A stretch of 64,000 nucleotides of DNA, from positions 5,296 to 69,295 of the forward strand of contig JAFPEE010000225.1 in the NCBI GenBank assembly GCA_017389705.1. Reading direction: 5' to 3'. The stretch is from Prevotella sp. Lineage in GTDB: Bacteria; Bacteroidota; Bacteroidia; Bacteroidales; Bacteroidaceae. The position numbers and the translations under genes are program-made. The notes beneath the pieces are model-generated. The model had not been told where the DNA came from. It saw only the letters and a program-made list of their open reading frames with translations, and did no database searches. This document shows, piece after piece, positions 10,472 to 52,297 of this stretch (position 1 is the first letter of the stretch; every line of letters starts with the position of its first letter).

Positions 10472-10476
10472 TTATA

Positions 10477-10510
10477 AGAGGTGAGAGGTAAGAGGTGAGA
10501 GGTAAGAGAA
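10477..10510 (+). repeat. Heptamer array AGAGGT(G/A) x~5, left arm of a 34-bp inverted repeat
   Basis: agaggtgagaggtaagaggtgagaggtaagagaa is the exact reverse complement of 12355-12388. Confidence 0.95.
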
Positions 10511-11948: not shown

Positions 11949-12314
11949 ATGAATGATTTCTATTACAGAAAACTTGTTGTTTACCATAAGTCAATGGAAC
12001 TTGTAAAGAGGGTCTATCAGCTAACAGAATCATTTCCTTCTTCTGAGCGTCATGGACTGACGAATCAGATACAGCGAGCAGTGATATCAATCCCTTCCAA
12101 TATTGCAGAAGGAATGGGGCGTTTCTCAAATAAAGAGCGTATTCACTTCTTGGAAATTGCTAATGGTTCATTAATGGAGGTAATGTGTCAATTGGAGGCC
12201 TCATTACTGCTTGGCTATATCTCTCAACAACAATTCGATGAACAAGAATTATTTATATCAGAAACCACAAGAATGTTGGTTGCATTAAGAAAGACATTCG
12301 AAGATAAAGTATAA
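11949..12314 (+). CDS. Four-helix-bundle protein (23S rRNA IVP / TIGR02436 family)
   Basis: L.VY.KS, FP..E.HGLT.QIQRA.ISIPSNIAEG and FLEIANGSL.E signature. Confidence 0.92.
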   Translation: MNDFYYRKLVVYHKSMELVKRVYQLTESFPSSERHGLTNQIQRAVISIPSNIAEGMGRFSNKERIHFLEIANGSLMEVMCQLEASLLLGYISQQQFDEQELFISETTRMLVALRKTFEDKV

Positions 12315-12354: not shown

Positions 12355-12388
12355 TTCTCTTACCTCTCACCTCTTACCTCTCACCTCT
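12355..12388 (-). repeat. Right arm of the perfect 34-bp inverted repeat
   Basis: ttctcttacctctcacctcttacctctcacctct. Confidence 0.95.
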
Positions 12389-38837: not shown

Positions 38838-40519
38838 CAGATAATATCATATCGCCTCTTGGGCTGACGTCAGAGGAGAACTACCAGGCTGTCAAGGCTG
38901 GTCGCTCTTCCCTTCGTCGCTATGATGACCGCTGGGGACTACCACATCCATTTACCGCCTCCTTGTTCTCCGACCAGCAAACACGGTCGTTAGCCGTTGA
39001 GGGCATGACTCGTTTCGAGTCACTTGCCGTCCGCTCTGTTCAAGAGGCTGTCGAGGGTAGCGGGATAGACGTAGCCAGCCCTAGGGTTGTCTTTCTGCTG
39101 AGCACAACGAAGGCAAATATAGATGGCCTGGCCACCTCTTCCTCCGCTTTCGTATCGCCAAGCGTAGCAGCAAAGCGTATTGCCGTCAGGCTCGGCCTCG
39201 TAACGGAACCTATCGTCGTCTGCAACGCCTGTATTTCGGGTGTGTCAGCTATTGTGCTGGCTCAAAGACTATTGGAGGCCGACAGGTATGACTATGCAAT
39301 CGTGTGTGGTGCCGACGTGCAGAGTCGTTTCACCATTTCAGGCTTCGCGTCGCTGCAGGCTCTTTCCGTAGCAGCGTGTAAACCCTTCGACGTAGAGCGC
39401 ACAGGCCTGAATCTGGGTGAGGCTGCAGCTACCATCGTCTTGGGGAACAGGAAGCCAAACCGTTCCGCCGGTCATTATTGGGTGATAGCAAAGGGTGTCG
39501 TTCGCAATGATGCTTTCCACATGAGTTCTCCTTCCAAGCATGGCGAGGGCGCTACCCGTGCATTGACAGCCGTTGCCTCCCACCTTAGCTCATTGGCATT
39601 TATCAATGCCCATGGTACGGCCACATTGTTCAACGACCAGATGGAGTCCGTAGCTATTGAACGGGCAGGCTTGAGTCATGTTCCTGTAAACGGACTGAAA
39701 GGCTATTTGGGTCATACGTTAGGTGCTGCAGGCGTTTTGGAGACCATCTTGTGCATGAAGTCTGCCGACGACCATACCATTCTTGCCACTCGAGGCTATC
39801 AGGAGAAAGGTGTATCAGGCCATATCTCTATCGCGTCAGACCATATATTCACTTCCAGCACCAGCTTTGTGAAGATGATTTCAGGCTTTGGAGGTTGCAA
39901 TGCGGCATTGTTCGTCACTAAGATGGCACCGCCCCCCCAACAGCTAACAGCTAACAGCCAACAGCTAACAGCCAAAAGCCACATAAAGATAACTCCTTCA
40001 GGGGTGTCGTTGGATGGGAAAGCGCTGGTGTGCTCTGCTAAAGGACCAGCCTTGCTAACCAGTCTGTATAAGCAGTTCGTTGGCGACTATCCCAAATATT
40101 ATAAGATGGATCCGCTGAGTCGTTTAGGCTTTGTGGCTTCGGAGCTGTTGCTCAGGCAGGAGTCAGACCATCCGTGCCAGGACACCAGCGACAGGGCTGT
40201 CATCCTGTTCAACCACTCATCATCCATCATGGCCGACAGGCTCTACCAGGAGTCCATACAGCATCAGGAAAACTATTTTCCCAGTCCTTCGGCCTTTGTC
40301 TATACCTTACCCAATATGGTCACAGGCGAGATCGCTATCCGTCATCATTATTACGGCGAGACATCATTTTATATATTGCATCATCGTGACGACCTGCTCA
40401 TGGAGCACATTGTCAGCGCGTCGTTCGCAGACGGAGACACGAAGAGTGTCCTCAGCGGATGGCTCGACTACGAGGACGACAGCCATTTCGAGGCAGACTT
40501 GTTTATTGCAGAACGTTGA
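38822..40519 (+). CDS. Ketosynthase fused to a C-terminal chain-length-factor-like domain
   Basis: NACISG, HGTAT and GHTLG; second domain YPKYYKMD...FPSPSAFVYTLPN. Confidence 0.85.
   Translation: MVYHIADNIISPLGLTSEENYQAVKAGRSSLRRYDDRWGLPHPFTASLFSDQQTRSLAVEGMTRFESLAVRSVQEAVEGSGIDVASPRVVFLLSTTKANIDGLATSSSAFVSPSVAAKRIAVRLGLVTEPIVVCNACISGVSAIVLAQRLLEADRYDYAIVCGADVQSRFTISGFASLQALSVAACKPFDVERTGLNLGEAAATIVLGNRKPNRSAGHYWVIAKGVVRNDAFHMSSPSKHGEGATRALTAVASHLSSLAFINAHGTATLFNDQMESVAIERAGLSHVPVNGLKGYLGHTLGAAGVLETILCMKSADDHTILATRGYQEKGVSGHISIASDHIFTSSTSFVKMISGFGGCNAALFVTKMAPPPQQLTANSQQLTAKSHIKITPSGVSLDGKALVCSAKGPALLTSLYKQFVGDYPKYYKMDPLSRLGFVASELLLRQESDHPCQDTSDRAVILFNHSSSIMADRLYQESIQHQENYFPSPSAFVYTLPNMVTGEIAIRHHYYGETSFYILHHRDDLLMEHIVSASFADGDTKSVLSGWLDYEDDSHFEADLFIAER
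39939..39980 (+). repeat. Six heptamer units AACAGC(T/C) in a coding linker
   Basis: AACAGCT AACAGCT AACAGCC AACAGCT AACAGCC AAAAGCC, preceded by C7. Confidence 0.95.
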
Positions 40520-42566: not shown

Positions 42567-42907
42567 TCACGTATGCAGTCATACAGAGCATGTTGCTTTG
42601 TGGTGGACAGGTGTTCTTGAAGTTTGCCCTGACCAGAATGCCTTCATTTGGATGGAACAAAGCGTTCTGGGTAGCCGCTCTTACCAACTGGCAGTTTGCT
42701 GTCAGTGGTATCCTCTTTGGCACCTGTTCCTTGCTGTGGATGTATATTATCAAGCATTTCCCATTCAGCGCGGCTTATCCAATGGTTAGCCTGAGCTATG
42801 TCTTTGGTATGTTGGCTGCCATCCTCTTTTTCAACGAAGAAGTTTCTTTGTCTAAGTGGATTGGCGTGCTGTGTATTGTTATAGGTTGTTTCTTAATCGC
42901 AAAATAA
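42554..42907 (+). CDS. Small EamA/DMT (ArnE/F-like) membrane protein
   Basis: Four TM helices; S.AYP..SL.Y and E.VS..KW.G. Confidence 0.8.
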   Translation: MWRLVTYAVIQSMLLCGGQVFLKFALTRMPSFGWNKAFWVAALTNWQFAVSGILFGTCSLLWMYIIKHFPFSAAYPMVSLSYVFGMLAAILFFNEEVSLSKWIGVLCIVIGCFLIAK

Positions 42908-43581
42908 TGATGAGACGAAGCATGTTGATACTATCTTTCCTGATAACAGGACTTCTGACGATGAAAGCGCAGGGAGATATCAAGCAGAAAATTATTCAGG
43001 CGGCATCATCCATCAAGACGATGCAGTGTGAATTCGTTCAGACGAAGCACATGAAGATGCTCAACGACCAATTGGTTTCCAAGGGAAAGATGTGCTATCA
43101 GACTCCCGATAAGCTGAGATGGGAATACGTGGATCCCTACACTTATACCTTTATCCTCAATGGTAGTCAGGTGCAGCTGAAAAATAGCATTGCAACGCCA
43201 CACTCTCTTGGGGAGAATAGGAGCGATGTCATCGATGTGAATCAGAATAAGATATTCAAGGAGATAGCGCAAATCATGGTGGGTAGCATGGTGGGTAGCT
43301 GTCTTTCTGACGATAAGAACTTCAGGACCAGCATTACTACGACCAGTACGGAATACGTGGCCTCAATGCTTCCATTAAAGAAGCAGATGAAGCAGCTGTT
43401 CCAGCGCATCGTCCTTCATTTCCCAATTGCATCGCCACACTCTCAAAGAGAGAAGGGGAGAATGAATTCGGTGGTGTCTAAAGTGGAGCTGATAGAAAAG
43501 AACGGAGATAGAACTATTATCGATTTAAGTCATATACGTCTCAATGAAACCATTCGTTCTGACCAGTTTGCTATTCGTTAG
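42907..43581 (+). CDS. LolA-like carrier protein
   Basis: Signal peptide, F.QTK..., SKG and LRWEY..P; carries two repeat-derived segments. Confidence 0.85.
   Translation: MMRRSMLILSFLITGLLTMKAQGDIKQKIIQAASSIKTMQCEFVQTKHMKMLNDQLVSKGKMCYQTPDKLRWEYVDPYTYTFILNGSQVQLKNSIATPHSLGENRSDVIDVNQNKIFKEIAQIMVGSMVGSCLSDDKNFRTSITTTSTEYVASMLPLKKQMKQLFQRIVLHFPIASPHSQREKGRMNSVVSKVELIEKNGDRTIIDLSHIRLNETIRSDQFAIR
43189..43217 (+). repeat. 29-bp intragenic stem-loop element, copy 1
   Basis: attgcaacgccacactctcttggggagaa. Confidence 0.85.
43426..43454 (+). repeat. 29-bp intragenic stem-loop element, copy 2
   Basis: attgcatcgccacactctcaaagagagaa. Confidence 0.9.
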
Positions 43582-43999
43582 CATGTTGGTGATGAGGGCT
43601 TGTCCTATGATGGCTCAGACTCAGCAACTTTTCCCCTTCCAAACGGGGGAGAAGATTCGGTATACTGCGTCTATTGAGATGCCTAAGGGATATATCAGTG
43701 GGATATGTGTACTGCTGAACGAAGGAGATGTGGTCAGGGGATGTCTGTTCAATGAGTTTGGCGTGACTGCGTTGGACTTCTCCTACCAACCGAAGAAAGA
43801 CAAGGTCAAGCTTCATACTGTTATGGGACTGATGGACAAGTGGTATATCAGAAGGGTATTGAGAAAGGATTTGCGTCAGCTGATGCAGTGTCTGCAGAAT
43901 GGTATGACGGCCTATCAAGACGAAAAGCATGGAATAACCTACAGGTTAACTCCGATGAAGATTGCAGAGCCACGCTCCCAAAAGGAGAATTTAAAATAA
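43544..43999 (+). CDS. Hypothetical exported protein of the PKS cluster
   Basis: Signal-like N-terminus; NEFG..LDF motif; overlaps its upstream neighbour. Confidence 0.7.
   Translation: MKPFVLTSLLFVSMLVMRACPMMAQTQQLFPFQTGEKIRYTASIEMPKGYISGICVLLNEGDVVRGCLFNEFGVTALDFSYQPKKDKVKLHTVMGLMDKWYIRRVLRKDLRQLMQCLQNGMTAYQDEKHGITYRLTPMKIAEPRSQKENLK
43961..43989 (+). repeat. 29-bp intragenic stem-loop element, copy 3
   Basis: attgcagagccacgctcccaaaaggagaa. Confidence 0.8.
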
Positions 44000-44014
44000 G
44001 AAAGCTAATAGCGT

Positions 44015-44473
44015 ATGGTATTGAAAGATAGTCTATATCAAATAATTGCTAAAGAAGAGTTGGAAGATACGCTCTCGACTTACGAGTGTGACTTTCCAAT
44101 TGTATATTCCCTGTCTTTAAATCAGAATCATTTAGTCTATCAAGCTCACTTCCCTGGCGAGCCTATCACACCAGGCGCTTGCATTGTACAGATAGCAAAG
44201 GAGTTGTTTGAGGACCATCTGAAAGGTAGCTATACCATTCGCACCGTCAAGAATGTGAAGTTCCTGTCTGTGATATCTCCTACGCAAACACCTCGTGTAG
44301 ATTATGTCTTTGAAAAGATGATGGCGTCGGAGGAAAGTGGCGATTATAAAGTCCAGGTTCAGGTACGAGATGCCACATCAACGTTTGCCAAGTTATCGTT
44401 AGTATTCTCTCCATGCGAGTATGGCGGTGTAATCTCGTCCTGCGAGTGCAAAAATTTAAATAGAGCAGTATGA
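44015..44473 (+). CDS. FabZ/ApeI-like dehydratase
   Basis: YQAHFPGEPITPG and VKFLSVISP. Confidence 0.85.
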   Translation: MVLKDSLYQIIAKEELEDTLSTYECDFPIVYSLSLNQNHLVYQAHFPGEPITPGACIVQIAKELFEDHLKGSYTIRTVKNVKFLSVISPTQTPRVDYVFEKMMASEESGDYKVQVQVRDATSTFAKLSLVFSPCEYGGVISSCECKNLNRAV

Positions 44474-45969
44474 TGGGTGTTGAGGAACAAAAGAGGTTGC
44501 TGCACGACAGAGGCATCTGCGTGGTTATTCCTACATATAACAATGAAGGAACGATAGACCATGTAGTTCATCAGGTGTTGCAGGAGTGTGGCGACGTCAT
44601 TGTTGTCAACGACGGATCAACAGACCATACTGGGATTCTCTTAAAGAAGTATCCTGCCATCACGCTGGTGGAATATCCCAAGAATCAGGGTAAAGGGTAT
44701 GCGCTTAAAAGGGGATTTAGGAAGGCTCTCCAGCAAGGCTTCTCCTATGCTATAACGTTGGATGGTGACGGACAGCACTATCCCGAGGATATAGCTAAGT
44801 TTCTCAAAGCCAATCAGGAACATCCTGGCGCTTTGATTATCGGTAGTAGGAATCTTGAGGGCATAGAGCGCAGCAAGGGCAGTGACTTCGCCAATAAATT
44901 CTCCAATTTCTGGTTTTACGTCCAGACAGGCAAAAGGCTGGCAGACACCCAGACAGGTTATCGGCTATATCCCCTTAAGAAACTTCATGGATTAGGGCTG
45001 CTGACCAGTCGCTATGAGGCTGAGCTGGAACTGTTGGTCTTTGCCTCATGGCATGGTGTCTCTCTTGTGCCCATCCCTATAAACGTCTATTACCCGCCCA
45101 AGGAAAAAAGAGTAAGCCATTTCCGACCTGTCAGGGATTTTTCTCGTATTAGCATCCTTAATACCTTATTGTGTTTCTTGGCAGTAGTCTATGGATGCCC
45201 ACTGCGTATTTGTCGCTTCTTTGGGAAATACATAAGGACCTTTTATGCGCTAATCTTCTTTGTCTTTTTCTCGCTGTTTATTATTACTCCATTGGTCTGG
45301 TTCTACGTGAAGGTGGGGAAGATGACGGAGCAAAAGAAGCAGCACCTGCACCAACTCATCCAATGGATCTCAAGGTTTCTGATGATGAAGCATGGTGTTC
45401 CGGGAACCTCTTTCTCCTATCAGGTAGCAGAGAATGTCAGTTTTGATACGCCACGCATCATTATATGTAACCACCAGTCGCATCTGGATCTCATGTGCCA
45501 ACTGGTATTCACGCCCAAAATCGTTTTCCTGACAAAAGACTGGGTGTGGAACAATCTCTTCTATGGTTTCCTCATTCGTCATGCAGAATATTATCCTGTA
45601 TCAGAGGGCCTCGAGACATTGTTGCCTAAGCTCAGGTCTTTAGTCCTGCGAGGATACAGCATTGCAGTCTACCCTGAGGGCACACGCTCGAGGGATTGTC
45701 AGATAGGCCGTTTCCATCAGGGGGCTTTCTATTTGTCAGAGCAGTTGGGCATCGACCTGCTGCCAATGTGCCTGTATGGTACGGGCAAGGCACTCCCTAA
45801 AGGAACCTATTTACTGAACAAGAGTCCTATCTATATTCAAGTGGACAAGCCTGTGACGCGAGACGAGCTGAAAAAGGTAGGGGACACGATGAAACAGGCA
45901 TCCTGGATGCGTGCCCGCTATAGAAAGGAATATCAGGATATTACTAATAGATTAGAGCAAGATGCGTAA
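44470..45969 (+). CDS. GT2 glycosyltransferase fused to a PlsC-type acyltransferase
   Basis: VIPTYNN, NDGSTD, DGDGQH and DTQTGYR; then NHQSHLD and YPEGTRS. Confidence 0.88.
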   Translation: MMGVEEQKRLLHDRGICVVIPTYNNEGTIDHVVHQVLQECGDVIVVNDGSTDHTGILLKKYPAITLVEYPKNQGKGYALKRGFRKALQQGFSYAITLDGDGQHYPEDIAKFLKANQEHPGALIIGSRNLEGIERSKGSDFANKFSNFWFYVQTGKRLADTQTGYRLYPLKKLHGLGLLTSRYEAELELLVFASWHGVSLVPIPINVYYPPKEKRVSHFRPVRDFSRISILNTLLCFLAVVYGCPLRICRFFGKYIRTFYALIFFVFFSLFIITPLVWFYVKVGKMTEQKKQHLHQLIQWISRFLMMKHGVPGTSFSYQVAENVSFDTPRIIICNHQSHLDLMCQLVFTPKIVFLTKDWVWNNLFYGFLIRHAEYYPVSEGLETLLPKLRSLVLRGYSIAVYPEGTRSRDCQIGRFHQGAFYLSEQLGIDLLPMCLYGTGKALPKGTYLLNKSPIYIQVDKPVTRDELKKVGDTMKQASWMRARYRKEYQDITNRLEQDA

Positions 45970-47509
45970 GAAGGTTGTCATCATAGGAAGCGGACTGGGA
46001 GGATTGTCCTGCGGGGTTATCCTGGCGAAGAATGGCTATGACGTTACCGTTCTGGAACAGGGTAACCAGCCTGGCGGATGCTTACAGTGCTTTACCCGCA
46101 GAGGGGTAAAGTTCGAAACTGGTATGCACTTCATTGGCAGTGCCTCTGAAGGGCAGACGCTAGACAGAATCATGCGCTACCTGGAGGTAAAGAAAGATGT
46201 GACGCTGGCTCCGTTGGATCCGGAGGGCTATGAGGTCGTCTCTATCGGAGGACAGGAGTTCCGCTTTGCCAACGGACGTGAGGCCTTTATTAAACAGATG
46301 GCCTCCTATTTTCCACATCAGCGCACTAACCTGGAGCGATACTATGACTTGGTAGAGCTGCTCGCTGGTGCCTCCTCACTGCATTCTTTAAGAGATCCTA
46401 ATAACCCTCGCATGGCAACGCTCTCTTTGCATCGCCACACTCTCAAAGAGCGAAAGAGAGAACAGTTGACTGACAATAGTCAACTATCTACCTACCAGTT
46501 GCGCACCATCCCTGAGGTCATCGACGAGATCATTACCGACCCTCTACTGGCTAAGGTGTTGGTGGGTAATCTGCCTCTCTATGCAGCAGAGAAAGACAAG
46601 ACTCCTTTCTCTACCCATGCCTTTATTATGGATTTCTACAATCAGAGTGCCTATCGTTTTGTGGGTGGCAGTGAGACAGCCGCCGCCTCGTTAGTTAGAA
46701 CGATGGAAAAATATGGAGGTAGAATCGTGCTTAACCATCAGGCTCGGAAAATTATCTGTGACGAGACACATGCTGTTGCTGTCGATGAGTTTCCTGCTGA
46801 TTATGTCATCTCCGATGCTCACCCAATGCGTACCTTGGAACTGGTGGATTCTAAGCTGATACGTCCTGCTTTCAGGGAGCGTATCAATGCCATTCCTCAG
46901 ACGGTGGGCTGTTTCTCAGTCTACTTGGATTTCAAGAAAGATACGATACCGTATATGAATAGCAACTATTACGGCTATCTGGGGGATACACCTTGGGGCT
47001 GTGAGCAATACGACGAACACTCCTGGCCTAAGGGCTACCTCTATATGCATTTCTGTCAAGAATCCAATCCTAAATATGCTACCACCGGTGTCATACTCTC
47101 CTATATGCAGATGAGCGATGTAGACCAGTGGGCTGATACCATGGTAGGTCATCGTGGTGCAGACTACGAGGAGTTTAAGATAGAACGCGCAGAGCGGCTT
47201 TTAGAAGTAGTAGGAAAATCTTTCCCAAATCTGAGGAGTGCTATTAACCATTACTATACATCTACGCCTCTGACCTATCGCGACTATACCGGTACCGAGG
47301 GAGGTGGTATGTATGGCGTGGCGAAGGATGTGAGGATGGGAGTAGCCTGTCGGGTACCTCATAAGACCAAGATTCCCAACCTGTTTCAGACGGGTCAGAA
47401 TATCAACTCGCATGGTATGCTGGGCGTAATGGTGGGTACCATTGTGACCTGTAGTGAACTGTTGACGCCAGAGCGTATCTATCAGCAAATAAGCAGAGGA
47501 GGAGATTAA
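45962..47509 (+). CDS. Phytoene-desaturase-like FAD oxidoreductase
   Basis: GSGLGG, FETGMH, STPLT and TGQN..HG. Confidence 0.88.
   Translation: MRKKVVIIGSGLGGLSCGVILAKNGYDVTVLEQGNQPGGCLQCFTRRGVKFETGMHFIGSASEGQTLDRIMRYLEVKKDVTLAPLDPEGYEVVSIGGQEFRFANGREAFIKQMASYFPHQRTNLERYYDLVELLAGASSLHSLRDPNNPRMATLSLHRHTLKERKREQLTDNSQLSTYQLRTIPEVIDEIITDPLLAKVLVGNLPLYAAEKDKTPFSTHAFIMDFYNQSAYRFVGGSETAAASLVRTMEKYGGRIVLNHQARKIICDETHAVAVDEFPADYVISDAHPMRTLELVDSKLIRPAFRERINAIPQTVGCFSVYLDFKKDTIPYMNSNYYGYLGDTPWGCEQYDEHSWPKGYLYMHFCQESNPKYATTGVILSYMQMSDVDQWADTMVGHRGADYEEFKIERAERLLEVVGKSFPNLRSAINHYYTSTPLTYRDYTGTEGGGMYGVAKDVRMGVACRVPHKTKIPNLFQTGQNINSHGMLGVMVGTIVTCSELLTPERIYQQISRGGD
46426..46454 (+). repeat. 29-bp intragenic stem-loop element, copy 4 (nested)
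   Basis: tttgcatcgccacactctcaaagagcgaa, inside an outer gcaacgctctcttt...aaagagagaa. Confidence 0.88.
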
Positions 47510-47511
47510 GC

Positions 47512-49020
47512 ATGCAAAAGTCAGTTATTATCATAGGTGCTGGGCTTGGAGGCCTGTTTACGGGAGCCTTCCTCGCTAAAGAGGGAATGGAGGTAACCCT
47601 ATTGGAGAAGAATGCTACCATAGGGGGAGGCTTGCAGTCGTTCAGACTTTTTGGTGAGACCTTCGATACTGGTATGCATGTTGTTGGTGGTATGTATCCA
47701 GGAGGTAATATTTACAAGATATGCCGCTATCTGGGCATTCTTGATCAAGTCCGGTTGAGAGATGTCGATGATAATTGTACGGACCAGCTGTATTTTGCTG
47801 AGGACCAGATGTATTATAGGATAGCAAAGGGCCGTGAGGGCTTTGTTAGCTCCCTGGCTTCTTATTTCCCTCAGGAGAGAGAAAACCTGGAGCGCTATGT
47901 GGCTGCTGTCTTTGATATGACGGAGCAGATAGATCTGTTCAACCTTCGCCCCTCGCAAGGTCGTCTGTCGTTGTTTACCGGTTCTGACGATTTCCTGATG
48001 GCGGCCAACGAGTTCATCGCCAAGTATGTGGAGGATGAGAAACTGCGTAGCGTGTTAGCCTATATGAATCCGCTGTATGGTGGGCGGGCAAACCAGACTC
48101 CTGCCTACATCCATGCCGTCATCAGCACGTTATACATCCGTGGGGCCAGTCGCTTTGTCGATGGCAGCTTCCGTTTCGCAGACTTGCTGGCTGGTGTAAT
48201 CAGACAGCATGGTGGGCATATCGTCACTGACGACGGTGTCGACTGTGTGGAAGTCGTTGACAGGCATGTCGATTACGTCAAGACCGTTAGCGGGAAAACC
48301 TATACCGCAGACTACTACATCTCGGACATCCATCCGTGCACCTTGTTGGGACTGATGGATGGGCGGGCGATGCCCAAGTCTTACTGGGAGCGCCTGAATG
48401 CCATTCCCAACTCCCACTCGGCATTCTCGCTGTATGTCAAGATGAAGGAGGGCTCGTTCCCCTATATGAATTATTCGGAGTACTACATGACGCGCTATGC
48501 TGATGTATGGCACTTCGCGGACTGTCGATGGCCGTTGGGTTTTCTGCTGATGACGCCACCGGAAAGTCATCAGGGGGCTTACAGCACCAAAGTACTGGTG
48601 ACGGCTCCAATGTCCTTCGATATGGTCAGGCAGTGGGAGCACACACGGGTAGGGCGGCGTGGTGATGCCTATGAGCAGTGGAAGAAAGAGTGTGCTGAGG
48701 AGTTACTGACGCTGATAGAGGAGATGCATCCGGGCTTCAGGGACCACATCGAGGCCGTTAATACGGCATCACCGCTGACCATTCGCGACTACTACGGAGT
48801 CAAGGAGGGCAGCATCTGTGGCTTCAGTAAGGATTGCCGGCATATTGCCCTGTCGCAAGTGCCTGTAGTGACAAAGATCAGCAATCTGCTGCTGACAGGA
48901 CAGAACAACAACCTACACGGCTTCTGCGGTGTGCCCCTGACGGCCATCAACACCTGTGAGGCCATTTTGGGTGTGAATACTATCATCAACAGAATAAACG
49001 AATGCGAAGTAAACTGCTGA
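47512..49020 (+). CDS. Phytoene-desaturase-like FAD oxidoreductase (paralog)
   Basis: GAGLGG, FDTGMH, ASPLT and TGQN..HG. Confidence 0.88.
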   Translation: MQKSVIIIGAGLGGLFTGAFLAKEGMEVTLLEKNATIGGGLQSFRLFGETFDTGMHVVGGMYPGGNIYKICRYLGILDQVRLRDVDDNCTDQLYFAEDQMYYRIAKGREGFVSSLASYFPQERENLERYVAAVFDMTEQIDLFNLRPSQGRLSLFTGSDDFLMAANEFIAKYVEDEKLRSVLAYMNPLYGGRANQTPAYIHAVISTLYIRGASRFVDGSFRFADLLAGVIRQHGGHIVTDDGVDCVEVVDRHVDYVKTVSGKTYTADYYISDIHPCTLLGLMDGRAMPKSYWERLNAIPNSHSAFSLYVKMKEGSFPYMNYSEYYMTRYADVWHFADCRWPLGFLLMTPPESHQGAYSTKVLVTAPMSFDMVRQWEHTRVGRRGDAYEQWKKECAEELLTLIEEMHPGFRDHIEAVNTASPLTIRDYYGVKEGSICGFSKDCRHIALSQVPVVTKISNLLLTGQNNNLHGFCGVPLTAINTCEAILGVNTIINRINECEVNC

Positions 49021-49856
49021 CACTGGTTCTTCTACAGACATGGCAGCTGTGTGTCGGTACTCAGGTGAACATCTGGGAGGGAACGGCATGTCGCCACAAG
49101 GTGAAGATGACTCCCTACATAGTAGAGGGACAAAACAATATGGCCGTCATCGTATGTCCTGGGGGGAGCTACTTCTGGCACGACAGCCATGCGGAGGGTC
49201 CCGAGGTTGCTCAGTGGCTTAACAGGAACGGCATCTCGGCTTTTGTGCTGAACTATAGGACGGCTTACATCCCTGCCTATGCCACGCACTTCCGACTATT
49301 GTTCCGCGGCAACCGCTATCCTGACCCTCAAGACGACTTGCGACAGACCATCAGGTACGTCAGGCAACATGCTGCTGACTATGGCATTGATTCCACCAAG
49401 GTAGGCGCGATGGGCTTCTCGGCAGGTGGCCATCTGGTCATGTCGGCGGCAGAGCTGTATGATGTGGCAGATCGTCCCGCCTTTGTGGGAGCTGTCTACC
49501 CTGTCGTCACGATGTCGGCTCCTTATGTCCATAAACGCTCACGCAGAGGATTGCTGGGCGACTCCAGGACCAGCAACAAACAGCTCAGGGACTTGCTGTC
49601 GTTAGAGCGACACGTACCCAGGGACTGCCCGCCGGTATTTCTGGTAAACTGTAAGGACGACCCCGTTGTGGACTACAGGAACAGCCTTCTGCTGGACTCT
49701 GCCTTGCAGGCCAATAACGTAGACCATAAATACCTGTTCTACCAGACTGGAGGCCATGGCTTTGGTGCCAGCGAGACCAAAGGCTCTGCGGAGTGCCGTC
49801 AGTGGAAGGAGGAGTTTCTGAAGTGGGTGAGGGAAGTGTTAAGTGATAAACGATAA
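49002..49856 (+). CDS. Alpha/beta hydrolase (esterase)
   Basis: CPGGSY, GFSAGG, DDP.V and GHGFG. Confidence 0.88.
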   Translation: MRSKLLTLVLLQTWQLCVGTQVNIWEGTACRHKVKMTPYIVEGQNNMAVIVCPGGSYFWHDSHAEGPEVAQWLNRNGISAFVLNYRTAYIPAYATHFRLLFRGNRYPDPQDDLRQTIRYVRQHAADYGIDSTKVGAMGFSAGGHLVMSAAELYDVADRPAFVGAVYPVVTMSAPYVHKRSRRGLLGDSRTSNKQLRDLLSLERHVPRDCPPVFLVNCKDDPVVDYRNSLLLDSALQANNVDHKYLFYQTGGHGFGASETKGSAECRQWKEEFLKWVREVLSDKR

Positions 49857-49870
49857 ACGATGATTGAAAA

Positions 49871-52297
49871 ATGGTAACATTGGTACTTCGTATATTCGAC
49901 ATGATGCGCAGGCGCAGGCTTCTTCGGTCGCTATCGCTGCTGCTCTTCACCGCATTACTCCTGGTGCCGCTGACTATCCATATGGCTGGCGGTACCTTCT
50001 CTTCGTCAGAGGATATTACCGACTTCCTGCCTGCCGAGTCAGCAGACTATCGCGAGGCAATGGAGGCTTGGAAGAAGTCGCCAGAGACCAGCAGGATTGT
50101 CGTCCTGTTCAGCCAGAAAGCTAATAGCGCTCGCAACGCCACACTCTCAAAGAGAGAAAAGCTCCCCCAGGCCATCGACCGCTTCACCAGTCTCCTTGAG
50201 GAACGTGACACGACAAGAATGGTACACGACTTGATAAGTCAGGTCGATATGGAGCAGATGGCCAGACAGATGTACCAGCGTGTGCCTTTACTCCTGACTG
50301 ATTCCGACTATGCCCGTGCCGACAGTCTGCTCAGCGACAGCAGCTACATCTTGCGTCAGCTGAGGGCCGACAAGCAAATGTTGCTGTTGCCCATGTCAGG
50401 AATGCTGACACAAAGCCTGCAGTATGATCCGCTGAACCTCTTCACCCCTGCTCTGCAGCGGCTGCAGGGCCAACAGAGCGCTCTGGTTATGCTGACTTCG
50501 CCCTACGGTAGCAGTGAGACGGGACAGAACGGCAAGCTGACAGATCTGCTGAACGATTGCATACAGCAGGTACAAAGAGATATTCCTGAAGTCAGCATCC
50601 ACTTGACGGGTGCTCCTGTCATCGCTGTCGGCAATGCCCGTCAAATCAAGGCCGACAGTTTGCTGGCCGTATCGCTGGCTGTCGTACTTATAGTCTGCCT
50701 GCTCTTCGTGACCTTTCGCCAGGTGCGTAACATCGTTCTTATTGTGCTGTCGATAGGTTGGGGTTGGCTCTTTGCCGTCGGAACTATGCTACTCATCAAC
50801 ACACAGGTGTCTGTGATAGTAATAGGTATATCGTCTGTCATCCTGGGCATTGCTGTCAACTATCCGCTACATCTGACAGCTCATCTGCGCCACACCACCG
50901 ATGTCCGTCAGGCCTTGAAGGAGATAGTGATGCCCCTGTTGGTGGGTAACGTGACAACGGTAGGTGCCTTTCTGGCCCTCGTTCCGCTGGATGCTGTTGC
51001 CCTGCGTCATCTGGGGCTGTTCAGCTCACTGCTACTCGTAGGTACTATTCTGTTTGTACTCTTATGGCTTCCTCACATGGTGAAACCTGCCGCCGCACCA
51101 CCTGCCTCAGTTCGGTGGCTGGAGCGCGTGAGCAGTCTGACGCTGGAGAACAAGCGCTGGTTGGTTGGCGTGGTGACGGTGCTGACCATTGTGCTAGGCT
51201 ACTATAGTTTGCAGACAGGCTTCGATGCTGACCTCAACCACATTAACTACATGACTTCTGAGCAAAAGCTAATAGCCAACAGCCAACAGCCAACAGCTAA
51301 CAGCCAACAGCTAACAGCCATCTGGAACTCCTTCGTTTCTCGTCATGGTGCCTACCTCCAGTCGGCAGTCACGGAGGCTGCCCGTGCTGAGGGCTTTGCC
51401 GACCATACCTTCGACGGTTTTTTCTCACTGCTTACACCGCTGGCTCCCAAGGCGCCTCCGCTCTCCACGCTGGTCACCCATCTGTCTGCTGACTTCAACT
51501 ACATAGGCTGGGCTTGCGGGCTCATCGTATTCTTCTTCCTATGGTTTTCGCTGGGGAGCATTGAGTTAGCCCTGCTCTCCTTCCTGCCCATGGCCGTCAG
51601 CTGGATATGGATTCTGGGTATCATGGTGCTGTGTGGTATTCAGTTCAATGTCGTCAACATCATTCTGGCTACTTTTATCTTTGGACAGGGTGACGATTAT
51701 ACTATCTTTATGACCGAAGGTTGTCAGTATGAGTATGCCTATAGGCGCAAGATGCTGGCGTCTTATAAACACAGCATCATCATCTCGGCACTGATTATGT
51801 TCATTGGTATAGGCACGCTCATCTTTGCCAAGCATCCTGCCCTGCATTCGTTGGCTGAGGTCACCATGGTGGGCATGTTCTCCGTAGTCCTGATGGCCTG
51901 GCTCTTTCCGCCACTCATCTTTCGATGGCTGGTATGTGACAGACAGGGCTATCGACGACAGCCTATAACGCTGCGTACCCTACTTCTGCGTCTGTTGCCA
52001 TGGGTCCATGCTACGGAAGACCCCTTCCGTTTGGTGGCAGACCGCTACCGCTATCGGGGGGTCGAGATTTCATCGGCTGTGAATCGAAGACTGCGTCAAC
52101 TGCGTCATACGCAGCTTGCTCTCACTGCTCAACTGACGGATGAGGGTTGGGGGGAGACAGCCCTTTTAATGGCATTGCAATATCCTGATACCATCTTTAC
52201 CGCCTCTATTGCAGACCCTGACCGTCTGCTGATGGCACGATATGCCGCTGAGGGCTTGGCCCCCAACCTTACCTTTATTCCTAAAGAAAACTCTTAA
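49871..52297 (+). CDS. MMPL/RND-family exporter (shortened)
   Basis: Two TM bundles with GIAVNY and FGQGDDY; large periplasmic loop. Confidence 0.85.
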   Translation: MVTLVLRIFDMMRRRRLLRSLSLLLFTALLLVPLTIHMAGGTFSSSEDITDFLPAESADYREAMEAWKKSPETSRIVVLFSQKANSARNATLSKREKLPQAIDRFTSLLEERDTTRMVHDLISQVDMEQMARQMYQRVPLLLTDSDYARADSLLSDSSYILRQLRADKQMLLLPMSGMLTQSLQYDPLNLFTPALQRLQGQQSALVMLTSPYGSSETGQNGKLTDLLNDCIQQVQRDIPEVSIHLTGAPVIAVGNARQIKADSLLAVSLAVVLIVCLLFVTFRQVRNIVLIVLSIGWGWLFAVGTMLLINTQVSVIVIGISSVILGIAVNYPLHLTAHLRHTTDVRQALKEIVMPLLVGNVTTVGAFLALVPLDAVALRHLGLFSSLLLVGTILFVLLWLPHMVKPAAAPPASVRWLERVSSLTLENKRWLVGVVTVLTIVLGYYSLQTGFDADLNHINYMTSEQKLIANSQQPTANSQQLTAIWNSFVSRHGAYLQSAVTEAARAEGFADHTFDGFFSLLTPLAPKAPPLSTLVTHLSADFNYIGWACGLIVFFFLWFSLGSIELALLSFLPMAVSWIWILGIMVLCGIQFNVVNIILATFIFGQGDDYTIFMTEGCQYEYAYRRKMLASYKHSIIISALIMFIGIGTLIFAKHPALHSLAEVTMVGMFSVVLMAWLFPPLIFRWLVCDRQGYRRQPITLRTLLLRLLPWVHATEDPFRLVADRYRYRGVEISSAVNRRLRQLRHTQLALTAQLTDEGWGETALLMALQYPDTIFTASIADPDRLLMARYAAEGLAPNLTFIPKENS
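50130..50158 (+). repeat. 29-bp intragenic stem-loop element, copy 5
   Basis: ctcgcaacgccacactctcaaagagagaa, preceded by agaaagctaatagcg (identical to 43999-44013). Confidence 0.9.
51264..51319 (+). repeat. Eight heptamer units AACAGC(T/C) inside the MMPL gene
   Basis: AAAAGCT AATAGCC AACAGCC AACAGCC AACAGCT AACAGCC AACAGCT AACAGCC. Confidence 0.95.

Follow-up and report, generated by a model that had tools for sequence, protein, structure and literature searches.

The stretch of Prevotella sp. DNA analyzed here (assembly GCA_017389705.1, contig JAFPEE010000225.1, positions 5,296 to 69,295 of the forward strand; hereafter the window, 64,000 nucleotides [nt] in full) carries a short hairpin repeat that is probably one of a family of mobile DNA repeats, very small and non-autonomous, which some rumen Prevotella possess. 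Aligned copies have G or C at position -3, A at the next position, and T (or sometimes A) after it; a 12-nt box that hardly varies (TGCAACGCCACA) follows, then a hairpin of the form CTC...GAG, and finally AA. The initial annotation of this stretch, made from its letters alone, had put forward a miniature element by which protein loops gain peptides while the reading frame stays intact. That proposal gains support from orthologs without the segments, from exact filled and empty sites in related species, from frame-preserving unit lengths, and from the predicted disorder of the loops.

A pattern search of both strands of the window, with 100 shuffles as background, returned plus-strand matches at 43190, 43427, 46427, and 50131, each with 0 to 1 mismatch, where the shuffles lead one to expect none. 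The five co-oriented copies listed at the outset (43189, 43426, 43961, 46426, and 50130) are all present, but that at 43961 is degenerate and a sixth copy, on the minus strand, had been overlooked. The window thus holds four near-perfect and one degenerate plus-strand copies and one degenerate minus-strand copy. The copies and their host genes, which are part of an aryl-polyene-type operon, are as follows.

43189..43217, plus strand: copy 1, 27 nt long and followed by AA, with a CTCTC/GGGAG stem and 1 mismatch, in frame in a LolA-like gene as IATPHSLGE
43426..43454, plus strand: copy 2, a perfect unit (CTCTC AAA GAGAG; exact match), in the LolA-like gene, where it reads IASPHSQRE
43961..43989, plus strand: copy 3, degenerate, with box TGCAGAGCCACG and stem CTCC/GGAG, in the C-terminal tail of a 151-residue open reading frame (ORF) and followed by a heptamer-like 15-mer
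44405..44432, minus strand: copy 4, degenerate and antisense (3 mismatches; nhmmer E = 1.6e-5), in the tail of the FabA-like ORF 44015-44473
46412..46462, plus strand: nested pair, in a flavin amine-oxidase-type gene
50130..50158, plus strand: copy 6, with the CGCAAC box variant and 1 mismatch, in the N-terminal region of an MMPL gene, where it reads RNATLSKRE
42907..43581, plus strand: host of copies 1 and 2, a LolA-like outer-membrane lipoprotein carrier (PF03548, via the Pfam labels of homologs)
43544..43999, plus strand: host of copy 3, a 151-residue ORF for which no Pfam family was found, conserved in 71 related loci
44015..44473, plus strand: host of copy 4, a weakly FabA-like 152-residue ORF (PF07977, E = 3.5e-4, below the family cut-off)
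45962..47509, plus strand: host of the nested pair, a flavin amine-oxidase or NAD-binding oxidoreductase of the phytoene-desaturase type (PF01593, PF13450)
49871..52297, plus strand: host of copy 6, an MMPL-family membrane protein (PF03176) that also contains a translated heptamer tract at 51263-51320

Copy 3 (43961-43989) was missed at up to 3 mismatches and gave a weak nhmmer match (E = 7.3), and the plus strand in the region of copy 4 translates as FSPCEYGGV. The nested arrangement at 46412-46462 was confirmed by reading the sequence: a complete inner copy (46427-46454) lies inside the loop of an outer copy without CACAC (46412-46426 plus 46455-46462). The translations first quoted for the three frames were correct on retranslation, and the host reading frames in the window are all open despite the copies.

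The comparison with orthologs that had been suggested as a check found four window copies absent from nearly all of them. Among the 64 to 80 orthologs aligned per gene, drawn from 80 related loci, the 9-residue (27-nt) segment of copy 1 (43190) is missing in 70 of 71; opposite copy 2 (43427) there is an 11-residue gap in 71 of 71; opposite the antisense copy 4 (44405) a gap of about 17 residues in 63 of 64; and the nested pair (46427) corresponds to a segment of about 25 residues missing in about 77 of 80. In the alignments these four stand out as clean insertions, 9, 11, about 17, and about 25 residues long. Ortholog tails are variable at the site of copy 3 (43961), for which an insertion is plausible from the alignment, and the region of copy 6 (50131) is likewise variable, with several relatives carrying their own copies nearby in other frames; both are therefore candidate insertions. 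In public data, a protein 97% identical to the LolA-like host has both inserts and the next relative, at 60% identity, has neither.

Mapping of the inserts onto a predicted structure gave a concordant picture for the LolA-like protein. In its AlphaFold model (mean predicted local distance difference test score [pLDDT] of 79.5), the only two segments below 50 are residues 96-102 and 177-185, which are the two inserts; the first follows the strand at 88-94, and the second lies between the strands at 165-173 and 192-197. Both inserts are accordingly modeled as disordered loops. Immediately after copy 2, at 43455-43462, the sequence GGGGAGAA looks like a near-duplicate of that copy's 3' arm (GAGAGAA) and may be the source of the 11- rather than 9-residue ortholog gap. 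The oxidoreductase loop at 46412-46462 has been hit repeatedly, with unrelated insertions in other Prevotella at loci L070 (a PQTTN-type heptamer peptide), L085, and L048.

Misassembly had been named as a reason to discard the repeat, and independent contigs that bridge every copy removed that concern. The genome (hereafter G000) is a fragmented metagenome assembly (265 contigs, 3.5 Mb, 86% complete) whose contigs often break at copies, as would be expected of a repeat with about the length of the assembler's word, and an assembly or binning artifact might be suspected on that account. The suspicion is refuted by contigs from three independent bovine studies (X8, X10, and X14), which bridge all six copies gap-free. 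Six genomes obtained by other projects carry the family as well, as do at least 120 metagenome contigs that match the element, and all host reading frames are open, so we give an artifact next to no credence. In strain X14, which is about 1.5% divergent, a C>A difference at 46451 restores a perfect inner stem of the nested pair. A contig from an RNA library (X19) spans the copy at 50130 gap-free. The two RNA-library runs consist of assembled contigs of a related strain that cover part of the operon and, of the six copies, only that at 50131, so that neither the remaining copies nor the ends of transcripts can be judged from them.

The hairpin occurs in two forms. The first has a 5-bp stem (CTCTC nnn GAGAG) and gives a 27-nt unit; the second has a stem of 6 to 10 bp and variable sequence, with an 8-bp stem and 3-nt loop giving a 33-nt unit. 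Examples of long-stem arm pairs are CTCTGACC/GGTCAGAG, CTTTGACC/GGTCAAAG, CTTCGACC/GGTCGAAG, and CTCAGACT/AGTCTGAG. Across 66 distinct copies, standard pairs fill 98% of pair cells, and 24 cells show double-sided changes compared to 3.4 in shuffles, none of 500 shuffles reaching 24; controls in which the arms were slid pair at only 21 to 52%. Folded as DNA, the 8-bp form reaches -7.5 kcal/mol (z = -3.1). Because the box is invariant while the hairpin is conserved in structure and variable in sequence, recognition in trans is suggested, and we propose that the family would be moved by an enzyme acting in trans on folded single-stranded DNA.

Copies are single, apart from one head-to-head pair (locus L174), nested copies, and tandem arrays at 32- to 33-nt spacing, including one triple array in frame within a 506-codon ORF of a sister genome (G303). 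The nested and tandem arrangements are further indications that insertion has been repeated. The CGCAAC box variant, preceded by CT, accompanies heptamer flanks. The upstream consensus [G/C]A[T/A] may be part of either the target or the element. In one subfamily, which is intergenic (G000 C210:956-994; G303 loci L128, L137, L146, and L158 at about 1499), the stem is bulged (CTCTGCACC TTY AGGTCAGAG) and the tail downstream is conserved; this subfamily adjoins a second hairpin and the reverse complement of a Bacteroidetes-type promoter (TTTG...TAccTTTG).

The statement that no copies lie outside a 7-kb stretch holds for the window but not for the genome. In G000 the 21-nt core has 31 matches compared to 0 for a reversed control, a script combining box and hairpin finds about 41 copies, and a covariance model, built and scanned as the initial annotation had suggested, gives 62 matches at E <= 0.1; the family is thus genome-wide, with a total of about 50 to 60 copies. 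The copies are clustered: 23 pairs are within 10 kb of each other, whereas 2000 random trials averaged 4.5 such pairs and never exceeded 17. By a long-ORF criterion applied to two genomes, 70 of 95 copies lie within long ORFs, some of the antisense assignments probably being promoter-proximal rather than genic, and some copies are intergenic near promoter-like sequences. Hosts include DXP synthase, ClpB, a class-3 FBPase, TatD, Mfd, PrmC, a dihydrolipoamide-dehydrogenase-type enzyme, glycoside hydrolases, and a sigma factor. With such housekeeping hosts, the element is therefore not confined to dispensable genes.

Carriers are few. Across 300 genomes sampled from the taxonomic family none exceeds 4 matches at 1 mismatch (G000 has 34), and 60 other genomes from the genus yielded one further carrier (G320). 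Viral contigs gave 0 exact matches. This distribution bears on the idea that the copies are selected DNA binding sites for nucleoid organization, replication, repair, or DNA uptake and are neither selfish nor mobile. Strong conservation of box and hairpin, and intergenic copies close to promoter-like sequences, would suit such sites. Against them stand a complement of only about 50 copies per genome that are strongly clustered rather than spaced, positions that are not conserved between sister species, the near-absence of carriers in the genus and family samples, and the lack of strand bias with GC skew (see below), and we regard binding sites as a very improbable explanation.

Evidence of gain comes from five rumen species represented by metagenome-assembled genomes (G301 to G305), which were found via the oxidoreductase gene and hold 38 to 51 exact box 14-mers each compared to 0 in the control. 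In the orthologous 13-kb cluster these species carry 2 to 6 copies each at about 15 sites, none of which coincides with a site in G000. Eleven of the sites are private to one species, and the remaining four are common to two species in mutually incompatible pairings. The five genomes are 90 to 94% identical in DNA, and junctions are therefore readable to the base. At three filled/empty sites the difference is exactly 33 nt, and at one, beside the oxidoreductase stop codon, it is 34 nt. At the junctions an AA or AT dinucleotide is all that is ambiguous, and any target duplication is therefore 2 nt or less. Some empty sites resemble the 5' end of the element (AATG..., and in one case TGCAACGCC). 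New copies are thus seen as exact one-unit additions beside an AA or AT dinucleotide, and copies are placed anywhere in the genome.

Many copies also stand in a particular context. G000 contains 305 period-7 tracts of many unit families, and 16 of 95 copies have heptameric flanks, the 27-nt unit being placed exactly between two heptamer units. The flanking heptamers come from at least four unrelated families (AGCCAAC-, AACGTTC-, AATGGTC-, and CCATCAG-type). Given this exact placement, either the element targets heptamer arrays or both arise by one process. Within the window, the identical 15-mer noted earlier beside two copies was confirmed at both places.

44000..44014, plus strand: 15-mer of heptamer type (AGCTAAT-type units), abutting copy 3
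50115..50129, plus strand: the same 15-mer, abutting copy 6 on its 5' side

At 44000-44014 it fits the AGCYAAY family of heptamers, by which many copies in other parts of the genome are flanked.

Together, the empty sites and the heptamers raise the alternative that the repeat spreads without a dedicated enzyme, each copy being written from another by template switching or microhomology-primed repair, the error-prone process that would also make the heptamer tracts, and then being carried between lineages by homologous recombination. The likeness of some empty sites to the element's 5' end would fit this route, as would the placement of copies between tandem heptamers of several unrelated families in a genome rich in period-7 tracts, the tandem and nested copies, the phylogenetically incompatible sharing of sites among sister species, and the failure to find a linked enzyme. 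It accounts poorly for nucleotide-precise junctions at unrelated sites with only AA in common, and the family is confined to few species; moreover, an invariant box with a compensated stem fits recognition by a protein better than passive copying. On balance we consider enzyme-free spread unlikely.

Unit length and reading frame are closely related inside genes. In G000 and G303, units within long sense ORFs measure 27 or 33 nt in 43 of 50 cases, compared to 10 of 25 outside long ORFs whose length is a multiple of three (Fisher P = 9e-5). In metagenome contigs the corresponding figures are 20 of 20 for copies in sense ORFs (27 or 33 nt) and 28 of 37 multiples of three outside long ORFs; in antisense ORFs the length is divisible by three for 11 of 12 copies, which makes 31 of 32 for the genic copies of this sample. 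Copies in genes occupy all three frames. Of the frame-preserving copies in genes, 63 of 86 are sense (P = 0.007 compared to the 0.6 expected from stop codons alone). The sense frames encode hydrophilic peptides (IATPHSQRE, LQRHTLKER, and CNATLSKRE) and the antisense frames are hydrophobic or contain a stop; selection on the peptide can therefore explain the sense bias. Inside genes, we suggest, only frame-preserving, stop-free copies would survive, to be translated as short hydrophilic peptides.

The initial annotation had offered a second possibility, an RNA signal that patterns the long polycistronic mRNA, and this did not hold up, since the family is genome-wide, resides in unrelated genes and between genes, and is antisense in about a quarter of its genic copies. 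More generally, the box and hairpin might act as a processing or protein-binding site through which transcripts bearing them have their decay, processing, or translation controlled. A covarying hairpin, a nearly invariant 12-nt box, the enrichment of frame-preserving copies in the sense orientation, and six copies in one long operon are all compatible with such a role. The antisense quarter is not, nor are hosts that are unrelated housekeeping genes with no preferred position in the transcript, and sites that differ among species 90 to 94% identical are unlike conserved regulatory sites. The sense bias is equally expected from the properties of the peptides, no Rfam family matches the element, and the origin of the copies would be left unexplained. 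An RNA signal is, in our estimate, a distinctly unlikely account. Rfam scans of the window and of seven other loci with copies gave chance-level matches only, none of them at a copy, and a literature search on the motif letters returned only unrelated primers, in keeping with the first impression of an undescribed element.

Several observations weigh against a mobile family. All six window copies are fixed within the species, even in a strain about 1.5% divergent, and no movement was observed. Incompatible sharing of sites among the sister species could be partly due to recombination rather than to new insertions. Folded as DNA by itself, the 5-bp hairpin has little stability (-2.8 kcal/mol, z about -1), and the case for structure therefore rests on covariation. 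Translation of the units into peptides is inferred from open frames, not from peptides. No strand bias with GC skew was found, the top strand of the element lying on the G-rich strand in 27 copies compared to 22, a test of low power in this fragmented assembly since genes show no skew bias either (51%). Above all, no enzyme is consistently linked to the element. A linked REP-associated tyrosine transposase (RAYT) or reverse transcriptase gene had been suggested; neither was found beside copies in this genome. No element copy lies beside the RAYT-like genes of G000, the carrier G320 and the sister genomes show no adjacency of RAYT and element either, and RAYT-like genes are present in 14 of 59 non-carriers of the genus sample. 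Reverse transcriptase (PF00078) is absent from the carriers G000, G301, and G302; a retro-element origin was therefore dropped.

The RAYT-like genes nevertheless remain the best lead to a mobile family's enzyme. G000 has three full genes and one fragment, for which the best family is NF047646 at 64 to 66 bits (cut-off 80). The full genes are 266 to 296 codons long, and each is bracketed by its own hairpin.

C197:47844-48999: RAYT-like gene
C202:146-2388: RAYT-like gene
C91:14453-15241: RAYT-like gene

The flanking hairpin (GATCAGGGGACGGTTCTCTGATC or a variant, in about ten copies in G000) differs from the element. An 8-mer (TCAGAGAA; TCAGAGAAC where the next base is C) is common to the 33-nt class and the complement of the RAYT flank, possibly by chance. 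The NF047646 profile gave weak matches in all five sister genomes, with no element adjoining, and searches of the same genomes with Y1_Tnp (PF01797) and with the G000 RAYT-like protein gave inconsistent or fragmentary matches. Among 80 metagenome loci selected for the element, 7 hold a Y1- or RAYT-like ORF where about 0.6 would be expected from the density in G000 (P = 2e-6, or 3e-4 with orthologous loci merged), and none occurs in 1 Mb of loci selected for the oxidoreductase. In two of the seven the element directly abuts the flank motif of the gene; in two others of the seven, and in G303, it lies in frame within the Y1 gene. ORF clustering around 150 loci found no recurrent neighbor except Y1-like ORFs. 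Our best guess, a tentative and rather doubtful one, is that the mobilizer is a RAYT-type HUH/Y1 tyrosine transposase whose substrate would be single-stranded DNA in folded form.

At G303:C59 near 66240 (L121 / L144) and at metagenome locus L243, the copy is in frame inside an ORF for an IS200-like Y1 transposase, of which only the portion that follows the insert is matched by the profile (positions 45-121). Two further candidates were rejected. A PF05635 four-helix-bundle gene linked to heptamer arms has two intact copies and a fragment, none of them beside the element, and a larger parent element was dropped when three G303 copies proved to have only a 105-nt flank in common, with no gene or transposase inside.

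In behavior the closest known counterpart is the Rickettsia palindromic element (RPE). The small dispersed repeat (SDR) of cyanobacteria comes closest in its size, in how precisely it inserts, and in its heptamer context. The initial annotation's comparison with RPEs stands for behavior and falls short for size and sequence. RPEs (Ogata et al. 2000) are about 105 to 146 bp long (PMC3184786). Like them, the element is a dispersed palindromic repeat lying in frame in protein genes, housekeeping genes included, apparently translated and tolerated, and has no linked transposase. Unlike them, it measures 27 or 33 nt rather than 105 to 146 bp and resides in Bacteroidota rather than Alphaproteobacteria, with no sequence relation known; its tandem and nested copies and its position within heptamer arrays are further points of difference.

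The cyanobacterial SDR4 to SDR6 (Elhai et al. 2008, as cited in PMC4390886, PMC5861425, and PMC13756078) are dispersed repeats of 21 to 27 nt judged mobile from filled and empty sites. SDR5 inserts between bases 3 and 4 of HIP1 (PMC4390886), SDRs are reported only in Nostocaceae (PMC5861425), and their function and mechanism are described as still unknown (PMC4390886, PMC5861425, PMC13756078). The likeness to the element, compared by description only, comprises a similar size, precise insertion at a short target, filled and empty sites, and a heptamer context. Elhai and colleagues are said to have described, in 2008, SDRs also in tandem heptamer repeats and as hairpins with compensatory changes. 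The element differs in that most of its copies are inside genes, its length classes are multiples of three, and its host is a member of Prevotellaceae, not Nostocaceae.

The second analogy first drawn, with repetitive extragenic palindromic (REP) sequences, fared worse. REP sequences and REPINs with their RAYTs (PMC3116915; NCBIfam NF047646) have in common with the element a unit length near 30 nt, a 5' part that is single-stranded and conserved, a hairpin conserved in structure over sequence, and a non-autonomous nature. The presence of RAYT-like genes in G000 and the enrichment of the element near such genes in metagenome loci add to the likeness. RAYT substrates carry a conserved GTAG-type tetranucleotide 5' of the hairpin. 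The 5' part of the element is instead the invariant box, with no GTAG, and the RAYT-like genes of G000 are flanked by a different hairpin. REP sequences are extragenic, number in the hundreds, and form inverted doublets, whereas the element is mostly intragenic, has about 50 copies, and occurs as single copies. No linked RAYT gene was found beside copies in G000, and it is in location and in the GTAG feature that the analogy breaks down.

MITEs (miniature inverted-repeat transposable elements; PMC3184786, PMC10969869) resemble the element in being short, non-autonomous, and multi-copy, with filled and empty sites among relatives and occasional fusion to reading frames. The smallest MITEs listed there are about 100 bp, several-fold larger than the element (PMC3184786, PMC10969869). 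The ends of the element (TGCAAC... and ...GAGAA), unlike those of MITEs, are not inverted repeats, its target duplication is at most 2 nt and ambiguous, and no parent insertion sequence is known. Set beside single-strand substrates of the IS200/IS605 type, which insert 3' of a short specific sequence with no target duplication and have a hairpin near the end, the element has a hairpin and no duplication above 2 nt, and its upstream [G/C]A[T/A] may be either target or element; it shows no bias with replication direction (27:22, a comparison with little power).

If the interpretation as a mobile family is correct, a dominant rumen genus would harbor mobile DNA as small as 27 nt that lives mainly inside essential genes, frame-neutral, as harmless loops. 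This would extend to Bacteroidota the RPE habit of Rickettsia and, at this size, the SDR habit otherwise confined to Nostocaceae. Such repeats break metagenome assemblies at k-mer scale, create false indels in ortholog alignments, and add lineage-specific peptides to enzymes; they also mark insertion-tolerant loops of use in protein engineering. How elements with neither a gene nor terminal repeats move has been unanswered since 2008, and the question is now testable with a 12-nt box, a hairpin, exact junctions, and candidate RAYT-like enzymes of the same genomes. We further speculate, at somewhat less than even confidence, that the element (25- to 31-nt core) is among the smallest known self-propagating bacterial DNAs. 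It would be active over the time of species divergence in rumen Prevotella, writing loops into housekeeping proteins, would be mechanistically tied to heptamer arrays, and would be moved by a RAYT-like enzyme on intragenic single-stranded DNA or by an undescribed mechanism. Together with heptamer tracts it would form a general generator of protein loop and linker variation for these bacteria.

Heptamer tracts are also visible elsewhere in the window. CAACAGC/TAACAGC-type tracts at 39937-39981 and 51263-51320 are translated in ketosynthase-like and MMPL genes as NSQQLTA-type peptides. Around 51230-51330 of the MMPL gene, other Prevotella (L031-L056) have a segment of about 60 residues, and G000 and its nearest relatives have only short linkers of heptamers and elements that differ between species. 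Farther upstream, inverted heptamer arrays at 10475-10508 and 12357-12388 (TAAGAGG/TGAGAGG compared to CTCTTAC/CTCTCAC) enclose an MFS gene and an ORF at 11949-12314 (121 residues; 125 bits to PF05635, the family of 23S rRNA intervening-sequence proteins). Elsewhere in G000 there are another intact copy of the PF05635 gene (C212) and, beside a RAYT flank motif, a fragment of it (C202).

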